Shown piece after piece: positions 3,398 to 46,034 of a DNA stretch of 64,000 nucleotides; the first letter of the stretch is position 1, and the number at the start of each line of letters is the position of its first letter. The notes below the pieces were generated by a model. The model was given only the letters and a program-made list of their open reading frames with translations, did no database searches and had not been told where the DNA came from. Position numbers and translations under genes: made by a program. Source of the DNA: an uncultured cyanobacterium (GTDB taxonomy: Bacteria; Cyanobacteriota; Cyanobacteriia; Cyanobacteriales; Nostocaceae); NCBI GenBank assembly GCA_963706595.1, contig OY970166.1, positions 1,536,001 to 1,600,000 of the forward strand, in the 5' to 3' direction.

Positions 3398-4697
3398 GTA
3401 AGCAACTCAGGTCTAAAGACACTGAGCTTTAGCCCAGATCGAACATACCAAACAAAGACATTTTTCCAAGTAATTGGCACGTCAGCCCCGGACTTTCGGG
3501 CTGGATTACAGACAACCCCAAAGCAGCAATATTCTTAGCCGCGTTTATATCAGCATCATGTTCAAATCCGCAATGCCCACACTTAAAAACTTTCCCGTTA
3601 CGATACGATTTACCTTTGATTGGGTGAACGTGTCCGCATCGGGAACAGGTCTGACTAGTGTAAGCAGGTGGGACAAATATCACTTTCACGCCAGCAATAT
3701 TTGCTTTGTACCCAACAAACAAACGCAATTGATAGAACGCCCAATTATTAGTTCTGCGACGCTCTATTTTACTTCTAGGTTTGGTATTGAGCGACTGTCT
3801 AATATTAGTCAAATCCTCAAAAGCCAAACTAGCGTTCATTCGTTTAGATTCTTGAACAAGTTGCTTAGAGATATTGTGATTCACCCATTCTTGAAACTTC
3901 CGTTCTCTCCCAGAGAGCCTTCTCAAAAGTCGCCTAGACGACCGAGTGCGTTTGGATTGAACATTAGCTCTGACCTTGCTATAACGGTCACGAACAGATT
4001 GAATCTGTTTACCACTCCACGATTCACCCGTAGAAGTGGTGGTGATATCACGACGAACCAAATCGACCCCAATCACTCTGGGAGTCTTGCCAGTTGGCTG
4101 AGTTGGGATATCAACAACAAAGTTAATAAAGTAGTCATCCTTCTTGGTTTTATTCAGAGTTGCACTGGTCGGGGTTTGACCCCTAAGCAATGCAATCTGG
4201 TATCCACCAATGGACAACTTGAATTCAACCCGTCCACACATCAAAGTCACCCCTACCGATTGGGATTCTTCCTTATAAGAAAAGGTGCGAACGTCCAAAC
4301 TGATAGAGGCAGGTCTAAATTTGTGGATCTGTTTAACAGCCTTAGCGTTACCAATAACTCGACGGATAGCTTGACAAACATGGTTTGCTTTCAATCCCGT
4401 CGCTTCACGGACTGGTTTATAAACCAAGTGGTGAAGTTTGGTAGTGTTCCAGCAATTCTCGCGTTTGGCTACTTCCAAAATCTGATTGCAAGCATCAGCA
4501 AAGCCTTCCATCGTGCGATCAATTTCGCCCCGAAAGTCAGAGGGTACTATAAGCTTGCATTTAACAGATATGTGTTGAGTCATAAGACTATTATAACTCA
4601 TCCAGTGCGATTTTAATGCTGACTGCGGTTAAAACCGCACGAGCAGTTTCCCTCTCAGGGCTAAAGCCTCTGAGTTTCCCACATCCCGCGAGGTTCT
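3398..4697 (-). mobile_element. Non-autonomous IS200/IS605-family (IS1341/IS891-like) element carrying only tnpB
   Basis: Related subterminal hairpins at 3406-3426 and 4654-4674. On the minus strand: right-end guide AAAG with cleavage site TTAC (3398-3401); left-end guide GAAA with target TCAT (4698-4701). Both fit the IS608-type pairing rule. Confidence 0.85.
3429..4583 (-). CDS. tnpB: RNA-guided endonuclease TnpB
   Basis: RuvC-I GVDL, RuvC-II AFEDL, zinc finger CSRC/CGHC, RuvC-III DADINAAKNI. Start placed at ATG 4583 because TATAAT (4590-4595, minus strand) lies 6 nt upstream, suggesting a leaderless mRNA. Confidence 0.93.
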   Translation of the reverse strand: MTQHISVKCKLIVPSDFRGEIDRTMEGFADACNQILEVAKRENCWNTTKLHHLVYKPVREATGLKANHVCQAIRRVIGNAKAVKQIHKFRPASISLDVRTFSYKEESQSVGVTLMCGRVEFKLSIGGYQIALLRGQTPTSATLNKTKKDDYFINFVVDIPTQPTGKTPRVIGVDLVRRDITTTSTGESWSGKQIQSVRDRYSKVRANVQSKRTRSSRRLLRRLSGRERKFQEWVNHNISKQLVQESKRMNASLAFEDLTNIRQSLNTKPRSKIERRRTNNWAFYQLRLFVGYKANIAGVKVIFVPPAYTSQTCSRCGHVHPIKGKSYRNGKVFKCGHCGFEHDADINAAKNIAALGLSVIQPESPGLTCQLLGKMSLFGMFDLG

Positions 4698-44160: not shown

Positions 44161-44422
44161 AAAGTGTCAAGAGTAAAGGTGAACGTTAGCGAGTATAACT
44201 GAGATCAGTAGGTCTGATGGGTTCAATTATCTCATTGTTATTGTTCAAAATCATCCAAGTGTGCAAGTATAACTCTGGTTATTCTGGATGATCGAAAAAT
44301 TTGAGATTTGGGATTTGGGATTGGGAATTTTCGGGACAAGCCCGCCTCTTCAGGGCAGAATTAATCCCAAATACTCGCGGCGCTGCGTACGCTTGGCTAA
44401 CGTAAATCGAAAATTGATTGAC

Positions 44423-44816
44423 CAGAGAACGAGACGCAAGTCCCTGGCTTCAGACATGGGGATAAGTCGGAAGCGACTTTAGTCGCATTCAGGAGTGGTT
44501 ATTGGTATAATGGGAAAAAGTGAGTAAGAATAACCATCTACGTGATGATACATCCTAGTGCGGAGAAATCCCGGCAACGGACATATCCAACTTGATTTGG
44601 AATAGTTAAAGGGCAAATAATGGCAGGATGTTGAGCGTACCTAACTGGCGTGGTGATGGACTCGGAAAACATTAAAACCTAAAAAGTAAGCGCAATTACA
44701 GCATCGTAGATCCCGGTAGTTGTTTTGAGCGTCTAGGGTGTTTTTGCCAGCACCATTGAAAGTTTGCTTGCGGACTCTTCAAGAATCCCCCGGCTTTAGA
44801 CGTGGAGAGATGTCAA
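44423..44816 (+). mobile_element. Protein-free IS200/IS605-derived element (PATE/MITE) carrying a structured RNA
   Basis: TTGAC target then left end with guide CAAG and hairpin; right end with guide GAAT, hairpin and TCAA; no ORF of 60 aa or more starts inside it. Confidence 0.85.
44503..44511 (+). promoter_or_regulatory. Extended -10 promoter (TGGTATAAT) inside the element
   Basis: Perfect TGnTATAAT, at the same relative position as the tnpB promoter of the 3398-4697 element. Confidence 0.7.
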
Positions 44817-44836
44817 TAAGCTATGTTCCTCTTGAG
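44518..44836 (+). ncRNA. Putative stand-alone omega-RNA-like transcript (scaffold to 44816 plus a flank-derived guide)
   Basis: Nested long-range pairings and a pseudoknot-like pairing of 44725-34 with 44808-16. Confidence 0.55.
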
Positions 44837-44897: not shown

Positions 44898-46034
44898 ATG
44901 ACAAGGAACGGCATCGGTATTCGCACGGCGCAAGTGCGTCCTGAACGGCTCACAGGTCAAATTCACATTTACGATGGAGTGGGTAAAGGTAAGTCTCAAG
45001 CGGCTTTAGGGGTAGTTTTGCGCTCAATTGGCTTGGGAATAAATACACCGGGCGATTCGGGTCGCGTCTTACTGTTGCGGTTTTTAAAGGGGCCAGAACG
45101 TGATTATGATGAAGATGGAGCGATCGCAGCTTTACAGCGTGGTTTTCCCCATTTAATTGATCAGGTTCGCACTGGGAGAGCCGAATTTTTTGGACCAGAG
45201 GAAATTACTCCCTTTGACCGAGAAGAAGCAGCAAGGGGTTGGGATGTAGCCAAAGGTGCGATCGCCTCTGGTTTATATTCAGTTGTGGTTTTAGATGAAA
45301 TTAACCCAGTTCTAGACTTGGGTTTGCTACCAGTGGATGAGGTGGTACGGACATTAAAATCCAAACCTCACGAATTAGAAATCATCGCCACTGGACGCGC
45401 CGCACCACAAAATTTGCTCGATATTGCCGATTTGCATTCGGAAATGAAACCCCAAGACCACCCCAGAGCAAAAGAACTGTTGCTTGAGGGGATTGAAATT
45501 TATACTGGTGCGGGGAAAGGTAAATCTACCAGCGCTTTAGGTAAAGCATTAAAAGCCATTGGTCGGGGAATTAATCATCCAGGGTCTACCCGCGTGTTGA
45601 TTATGCAATGGCTTAAAGGTGGTAGTGGCTACACAGAAGATGCAGCGATCGCGGCTTTACAGCAATCATATCCAGAGGTGGTAGATCATCAACGTTGTGG
45701 TCGAGATGCGATTGTTTGGCGCAATTGTCGCCAAGAATTGGACTATGTAGAAGCCGAAAGAGGTTGGGAAATTGCCAAAACGGCGATCGCCTCTGGATTG
45801 TATAAAACCATCATTCTCGATGAACTCAACCCCACAGTTGATTTAGAACTACTTCCCGTTGAACCCATTGTCCAAGCCTTACTTCACAAACCCCGCGATA
45901 CGGAAGTCATTATCACTGGTCGCTGTCAAAATCAACCAGCTTACTTCGATTTAGCCAGTGTTCACTCTGAGGTATACTGTCACAAACATTATGCCAATCA
46001 AGGTGTAGAACTGAAACGCGGAGTAGATTTTTAA
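44898..46034 (+). CDS. cobO: Cob(I)yrinic acid a,c-diamide adenosyltransferase (tandem CobA/BtuR domains)
   Basis: Two GxGKGKS P-loops, LDE(I/L)N and TGR motifs. Confidence 0.93.
   Translation: MTRNGIGIRTAQVRPERLTGQIHIYDGVGKGKSQAALGVVLRSIGLGINTPGDSGRVLLLRFLKGPERDYDEDGAIAALQRGFPHLIDQVRTGRAEFFGPEEITPFDREEAARGWDVAKGAIASGLYSVVVLDEINPVLDLGLLPVDEVVRTLKSKPHELEIIATGRAAPQNLLDIADLHSEMKPQDHPRAKELLLEGIEIYTGAGKGKSTSALGKALKAIGRGINHPGSTRVLIMQWLKGGSGYTEDAAIAALQQSYPEVVDHQRCGRDAIVWRNCRQELDYVEAERGWEIAKTAIASGLYKTIILDELNPTVDLELLPVEPIVQALLHKPRDTEVIITGRCQNQPAYFDLASVHSEVYCHKHYANQGVELKRGVDF

Follow-up and report, generated by a model that had tools for sequence, protein, structure and literature searches.

Gene-less IS200/IS605 elements (PATEs) that encode omegaRNAs are already known. 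In Geobacillus stearothermophilus, protein-less elements of this kind often encode omegaRNAs that need TnpB in trans, and cleavage of empty sites with restoration by recombination is also reported (PMC10055086; here, as for every paper cited, our statements cover the portions of the text available). These elements share left and right ends, the absence of an open reading frame and an omegaRNA for a TnpB in trans with the element described here; however, their host and TnpB clade are different, and the available text describes neither a dedicated promoter with a conserved leader nor an exchange of ends. The stand-alone omegaRNAs of OMEGA systems are likewise mobilised, effector-less guide RNA genes that were shown to work in trans, with a role stated to be unknown in the sections available (PMC10691335), whereas the RNA described here has TnpB polarity, with the guide at the 3' side, carries a 165-nt leader and is known from sequence alone. 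IStrons, which join a group I intron to IS605, also hold a structured RNA inside IS605 ends and exist in gene-less versions, and a gene-less PATE with IStron ends is in print (10.1101/2023.11.20.567912); in contrast, our RNA has no group I intron match in Rfam and is predicted to start downstream of a promoter inside the element rather than at the left end.

TnpB trims its own mRNA, and reported omegaRNA lengths range from 79 to 466 nt (PMC10278001). In the RIIr-5 clade a Gly replaces the usual RuvC-II Glu and an alternative Glu lies in a loop (PMC10691335). The omegaRNAs of RIIr-5 orthologues 28 and 38 both start AAGUAU and are 170 and 179 nt long (PMC10278001, File S2), and one mapped RIIr-5 TnpB is active with the target motif TTTAC (PMC10278001). 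These two scaffolds thus begin at AAGUA, as predicted here; orthologue 28 has a similar AAGAAUCCCC...GUCAA right end, and orthologue 38 shares TEESYTS and NADxNG with the partner TnpB described below. Their RNAs are cut in cis from the tnpB mRNA, whereas the 133 nt considered here lie behind a non-coding leader. The ISDra2 omegaRNA, which belongs to another TnpB clade, has a pseudoknot between an upstream loop and the right end, as here; its scaffold measures 231 nt, and its 5' half is coding sequence and is dispensable (PMC10097598). In the case of AmaTnpB, an upstream part of the protein's own mRNA inhibits cleavage (PMC10278001). We found no published description of the present family, its leader or an exchange of ends in a search with thin coverage of subscription journals, and a leader cassette common to several IS605 subfamilies appears to be undescribed. 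Ncr0560, which starts inside a Synechocystis tnpB (PMC8136920), or a 70-copy transcribed intergenic element that was read as a DGR RNA (PMC3610870), may belong to the family.

The locus lies between fraC and cobO in a 64,000-nucleotide stretch of the genome of an uncultured cyanobacterium of the Nostocaceae (GCA_963706595.1, contig OY970166.1, positions 1,536,001 to 1,600,000; hereafter the window, whose numbering we use). We consider it reasonably probable that it is a non-autonomous IS200/IS605 element of the PATE type that forms a stand-alone omegaRNA gene with a TnpB partner in trans. The gene-less element is 394 bp long (44423-44816, forward strand), with the target motif (TAM) TTGAC just outside its left end (44418-44422). 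The left end (44423-44486) holds CAAG at 44437-40, a hairpin at 44441-62 and a second palindrome at 44473-86; the right end (44783-44816) holds GAAT at 44783-86, a hairpin at 44786-44808 (98% of cells paired across homologues, two-sided changes in 3 of 5 pairs) and TCAA at 44813-16. In IS608-type elements the end tetramers pair with the cleavage sites, and this rule is obeyed by CAAG with TGAC and by GAAT with TCAA. A PATE is recognised by subterminal hairpins with guide tetramers that fit the cleavage sites, by the absence of a protein gene, and by scattered copies that each follow a fixed motif on its 3' side and leave the target unduplicated. The first-pass annotation of this DNA had claimed such a 394-bp unit with ends following the TnpA rule, no long reading frame and ends unlike those of the local tnpB element. 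The coordinates and tetramers were verified in the sequence, six-frame translation yielded no long ORF, and the difference of ends was confirmed. The second palindrome that it had reported is present, but belongs to the parental left end, as the partner element shares it. The local tnpB itself (3429-4628, reverse strand; a 399-aa frame with an HDADIN motif) has a TCAT-type left end, as found in several gene-less family members (hereafter minis) of other genomes, namely L007, L061 and L072, and a different right end.

The element is mobile and has transposed. Near-identical copies number 28 in the congeneric genome G010 and 17 in G224, and G004 has a full-length copy (81%) at another site; within the genus, 10 of 11 genomes give at least a partial match. 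Ten of the 28 G010 copies were read, of which eight follow TTGAC and two CTGAC, and their flanks are all different. The 20 nt behind the right end (44817-44836), which by analogy with TnpB systems would be the guide, differ at each copy seen. The element is absent from all nine orthologous cobO upstream regions fetched, with no exact empty junction among these nine sites. The earlier proposal of a mobile unit that gains a new flank at each insertion is therefore borne out by the many copies, while an exact empty allele was not seen. By BLAST the family is found in 45 of 301 genomes of the order. A covariance model restricted to the promoter and leader (R1) detected members in 14 of the 151 genomes taken from the phylum, every one belonging to that order, and a scan of 185,579 species genomes with a 23-nt 5' motif gave at least 119 loci. 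Among the matches listed, 79 of 80 carry cyanobacterial titles (Microcoleus, Calothrix, Nostoc, Planktothrix, Anabaenopsis and others) and one that of an unclassified bacterium. The motif was not found in viral contigs, and the one match among PLSDB plasmids is to a tnpB 3' end only. In 73 motif-selected loci with full flanks, a right end follows 252-373 nt downstream in 70, no sense frame exceeds 67 aa, and similarity to TnpB occurs in eight, confined to residues 396-422.

The 3' part of the interior is derived from tnpB. Over its terminal ~85 nt it matches the 3' end of a tnpB in the same genome (C1:5421188-5422246) at 85% identity, and a profile of 28 tnpB 3' ends, from which the 4 of 32 loci lacking a right end were left out, matches 44722-44816 at 35.9 bits (E 2e-12). 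Profile-profile alignment to the tnpB ends reaches a score of 53.8, where shuffles peak at 17.3, and extends back to AAAAGTA (44683); in one family comparison the 14 of 43 loci without an anchor were left out. The initial statement that no TnpB remnant is present was wrong, because the last ~133 nt are homologous to the 3' end of a tnpB of RIIr-5 type. As in TnpB omegaRNAs, the predicted scaffold stops at the right end and shares ancestry with the 3' ends of tnpB. A candidate processing motif, A[AC]GTA, is conserved in 33 of 36 thinned minis at a distance of 119-148 nt from the end; the 28 tnpB 3' ends have AAAGTA in 25 cases and AAGGTA in three, and a GTA codon is present in 19 of 19 genes. 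By analogy with the two mapped RIIr-5 orthologues, both distant, the functional scaffold is probably the 3' ~133 nt from AAGUA (44684-44816), with the ~165-nt leader (44518-44683) trimmed off. The RNA had been thought longer than typical TnpB scaffolds. At ~300 nt the whole of it falls within the published range, and its functional part is probably the shorter 3' segment.

Thermodynamic folding gives no signal: the element RNA folds at -67.1 kcal/mol, compared with -74.6 for shuffled sequences (186 of 200 shuffles at least as good), 21 family members have a mean z of -0.02 with none below -2, and four of the helices derived by comparison each reach a probability of at most 0.08 in the ensemble of this copy. 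The structure is therefore argued from comparison alone, with pair counts on sets of 19, 16 and 39 sequences. On 19 homologues, the four nested helices drawn from this single sequence gave 10 pairs with two-sided changes against 8.7 in shuffles. One of them, 44550-56/44625-31, stood (93% of cells paired, two-sided changes in 5 of 7 pairs), but the other three, 58-68% paired, did not. The alternative set (44534-38/44655-59, 44539-43/44635-39, 44550-56/44625-31, hairpins at 44692-44723 and 44737-54, and the right end) is 81% paired, with 28 two-sided pairs against 17.4 in shuffles (0 of 500 as high). In helix 44550-56/44625-31, 6 of 7 pairs covary in 15 loci outside the model set, though found with the model, and again 6 of 7 in 39 loci found purely by sequence motif, where 245 of 272 cells are paired and shuffles reach 219 at most. 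It is the only leader helix that covaries strongly, the others (44522-25/44660-63, 44534-38/44655-59 and 44539-43/44635-39) being well paired, nearly invariant and of low probability in this copy. The leader also has a hairpin, GG-NGNAA-YY-CC (44562-72), conserved in the minis, the loop of which we take to recall GNRA or T-loop motifs.

Downstream, a hairpin at 44734-44754 exposes the loop TTGCC (44744-48), which pairs with the terminal GTCAA at four of five positions in this copy; TTGCC is shared by 10 of 73 motif-selected loci. Among 45 tails, of which four were mis-picked and one unpicked, the loop and end combine as TTGAC/GTCAA in 26, TTGAT/ATCAA in five and TTGAA/TTCAA in three, giving three covarying types in 34. 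This is the loop-end pseudoknot expected of a TnpB omegaRNA, of the kind described for ISDra2 (PMC10097598). The pseudoknot first proposed, between 44725-34 and the terminus, was ruled out together with the three helices by the pair counts on 19 homologues. The earlier picture of a large structured RNA thus holds in its covarying helices, but not as a fold better than chance. A search of the Rfam covariance models, including HEARO, IS605-orfB, group I and II introns and riboswitches, returned nothing even with E cutoffs of 1 or 10, and two relatives gave only chance snoRNA and miRNA matches.

An extended -10 box, TGGTATAAT, is present at 44503-44511, as had been claimed, and predicts a start near 44518. 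In 45 thinned loci the pattern TGnTAnnnT occurs in 30, compared with a background of 4.8%, and in 24 of these it precedes CCATC by 29-32 nt. This set overlaps the 73 motif-selected loci, 51 of which have the box, and several of its misses are mis-anchored. A promoter conserved at fixed spacing across the family is thereby upheld. Family relatives were recovered as contigs from all four RNA libraries considered, including one of 289 nt that runs from the leader to its own right end and one of 411 nt that includes the left end, and one RNA run contained two 151-nt records nearly identical to this locus. These contigs are a weak hint of expression, because they cannot show start, strand or level. 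We infer transcription from ~44518 through the right end. Judged by these comparisons, promoter, structured leader and tnpB-derived scaffold are shown to have been kept under selection. The reading of the element as a stand-alone RNA gene accordingly gains from its mobility, its lack of a gene, the conserved promoter and the covarying RNA, but is qualified by the tnpB origin of its 3' 130 nt.

A tnpA/tnpB element with the same ends, which the first-pass annotation had suggested looking for, exists in G010 (L141). It follows TTGAC, its 3' end is alike, and its left end is identical at 65 of 72 bases, TAM and palindrome included; the local alignment score of 113 compares with at most 41 for 12 other tnpB loci. 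The L141 TnpB has the motifs GIDPG, IVFGWN, TEESYTS and INADANG and is, by motif, assigned to the RIIr-5 clade. A reading of the partner as a 'Derived' TnpB, taken from the NAD motif, was dropped when File S2 of PMC10278001 and PMC10691335 pointed to RIIr-5. The closest relative of L141 in the host genome (G000) has a TnpB 73% identical, interrupted by a premature stop, and of its tnpA just the tail is left. This locus (L013, C1:5420700-5422246) has an intact-looking 3' end. A cognate TnpA was not found in G000, where the best candidates reach 35-41% identity. The host encodes three intact TnpBs of the clade with other left-end motifs (TCAC, TTAC) and two intact TnpAs that share TTGAC/CAAG and have a different hairpin. 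With its cognate tnpA and tnpB broken in the host, this copy is therefore probably an orphan now. The prediction of a partner encoded elsewhere is borne out by L141, though the host itself carries a broken member of the partner family as well. In a hand count of related, non-independent genomes, the TnpB clade is present in 11 of 12 mini-positive genomes and 37 of 69 others; G057 and G268 have minis and no match to the TnpB queries used. The host genome contains one site matching TAM and guide with three mismatches, at chance level, and viral contigs contain no exact target.

Under this reading, the TnpA of an autonomous element would move a mini to a position behind TTGAC or CTGAC, and the -10 box would then drive an RNA of ~300 nt plus flank. 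A RIIr-5-type TnpB from elsewhere would bind this RNA and trim it at AAGUA (44684) to a ~133-nt scaffold with its guide. The leader would take the place of the tnpB mRNA from which omegaRNA is normally cut, and probably protects the RNA or aids loading in trans. The loaded TnpB could cut chromosome copies with an empty site, and recombinational repair would restore the element. Cyanobacterial chromosomes are present in multiple copies, which would favour restoration by recombination. The family offers a natural test set, with dozens of guides in one genome, an identified partner and many independent combinations of leader and core. It also adds to the filamentous cyanobacteria a structured RNA that is abundant but uncatalogued. 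If the leader aids loading in trans, it would explain the means by which a guide RNA can hold its own against the mRNA of the nuclease, and compact TnpB tools might be improved with it; if it is only a protective remnant, the family is a good new example of a described kind.

The origin of the leader bears on the alternative closest to the idea of the first-pass annotation, in which the whole ~300 nt is the working scaffold and the leader is the diverged 5' part of a long omegaRNA spanning the last ~100 codons of tnpB. Some features of intact tnpB genes agree with this. Their GEKP codons are constrained at synonymous positions (GGT in 17 of 19, CCC in 15 of 18), the hairpin these codons form lies at about the same distance from the end as the GG-NGNAA-YY-CC hairpin of the minis, and third positions after TEESY are more conserved than those upstream (p 0.001). 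The conserved mini motif starts 297 nt from the end and the tnpB EESYT codons 298 nt, and the family consensus aligns weakly to this part of tnpB, most strongly at the colinear position; 8 of 1000 shuffles did as well in one comparison and 6 of 300 in another. Five tests of the leader (44518-44683), however, gave no homology to tnpB. The nhmmer search was at chance level; frameshift-aware alignment gave z values of -0.6 for this copy and 0.8 for the consensus, with 3 of 29 loci above all shuffles; in profile-profile alignment 50 and 108 of 200 shuffles scored as high; a leader covariance model run on 32 tnpB loci had a best E of 0.31; and pairwise alignment of this copy was equalled by 102 of 300 shuffles. 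The AAGUA start of the mapped RIIr-5 scaffolds and the dispensable 5' half of the ISDra2 RNA also speak against a long scaffold, which we regard as unlikely though the strongest of the competing accounts. A version in which the entire interior is frameshifted tnpB coding sequence was rejected, holding for the 3' 130 nt only. An old descent of the leader from tnpB coding sequence is possible on this evidence, even if the leader is trimmed.

Upstream of the pseudoknot hairpin the relationship between minis and tnpB elements changes abruptly, the hairpin being the junction at which similarity to the partner tnpB jumps. Downstream of TAG 44734, mini and tnpB cores form close pairs (L001/L013 86%, L057/L152 80%, L048/L084 87%, L071/L086 93%, L058/L099 79%), whereas upstream of it their identity is 50-60%, the background of the aligner; mini leaders are 61-74% identical to each other. 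Many minis share cores among themselves, since of 22 thinned minis just 7 have a tnpB core, and not another mini, as their nearest match. A core tree of 82 columns, built from 16 of 29 minis and 19 of 33 tnpB ends hand-chosen for similar length, needs nine label changes, at least five of them forced by supported branches, and a single mini clade of 3' cores is rejected (AU p 1e-36). Left ends mostly follow the same subfamilies as the cores, leader distances track core distances only in part (rho 0.41), and L018 and L049 have a common core (88%) without a close leader (65%). One promoter and leader cassette is thus, on these alignments, combined with the ends of at least five tnpB subfamilies. 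We infer that the route was recombination or repeated conversion of the ends to those of a resident partner, by which the cassette would have been recombined with the ends and cores of several subfamilies. L055, L064 and L115 sit within, or immediately downstream of, the 3' end of another IS element, and such insertion is a possible route for end exchange. We propose, tentatively and with more doubt than conviction, that the promoter and 165-nt leader form a portable RNA module that has its own task, either to load a guide RNA onto TnpB in trans or to draw TnpB off its mRNA, and that was grafted repeatedly onto IS605 subfamily ends, each graft then a gene-less guide factory that parasitises the resident TnpA and TnpB and changes its target motif at each swap.

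A leader kept while ends and cores are exchanged, the high copy numbers and the inhibitory upstream mRNA of AmaTnpB would also fit an RNA that serves mainly as a decoy or regulator, acting on TnpB by titration or inhibition, or a leader with a function of its own for which the IS ends are a vehicle. We think this improbable: the leader nearly always accompanies a downstream core and right end (a script found no end in only 3 of 73 loci), the pseudoknot stays in register with the ends, which a working guide requires, and nothing in Rfam resembles the RNA.

The element might instead be a neutral relic of internal deletion that matters through its DNA ends alone, its interior being in decay. The tnpB-derived 3' part, the lack of a folding signal and the broken partner in the host are what such a relic would leave; yet the promoter is held at fixed spacing, 6 of 7 main-helix pairs show two-sided changes in each of two further sets of loci, and the length of the minis is constant across many genera. 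We give this account little credence. Finally, a domesticated promoter or 5' regulatory RNA for cobO (44898-46034, forward strand, PF02572) can be set aside as very improbable: the promoter does point at cobO, as first remarked, which lies 81 bp downstream on the same strand with no terminator-like site found, but a role of the element for cobO is unlikely because all nine orthologous sites lack it and keep their own GGTAAAAT-like -10 box, its homologues adjoin unrelated genes, and no cobalamin riboswitch was matched.

Several further loci were recorded. Intact tnpB genes (L081-L110, codons from TEESY to the end) show constraint at the DNA or RNA level inside coding sequence, namely the GEKP hairpin, an invariant GTA (19 of 19) at KV, and a long hairpin with covariation across KVA..LG..GV. 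The host genome holds two more family members with other ends. At C1:3481635-3481966 (L022, L080), before lysS, the left end is lost and the right-end hairpin has a 25-bp insert, and a family member lies between rpsB and tsf at C1:1344289-1344700 (L018, L079). A 70-nt fragment of the leader/scaffold junction without ends is present at C1:1325159-1325231 (L025). In G003, L015 and L020 are solitary left ends, ~33 bases identical to that of the element, with interior and right end absent nearby. Directly left of the element, a ~128-bp repeat (44289-44416), absent from most of the cobO orthologues read, has 11 BLAST matches in the genome, four of more than 90 bases, and looks like a separate small mobile repeat.
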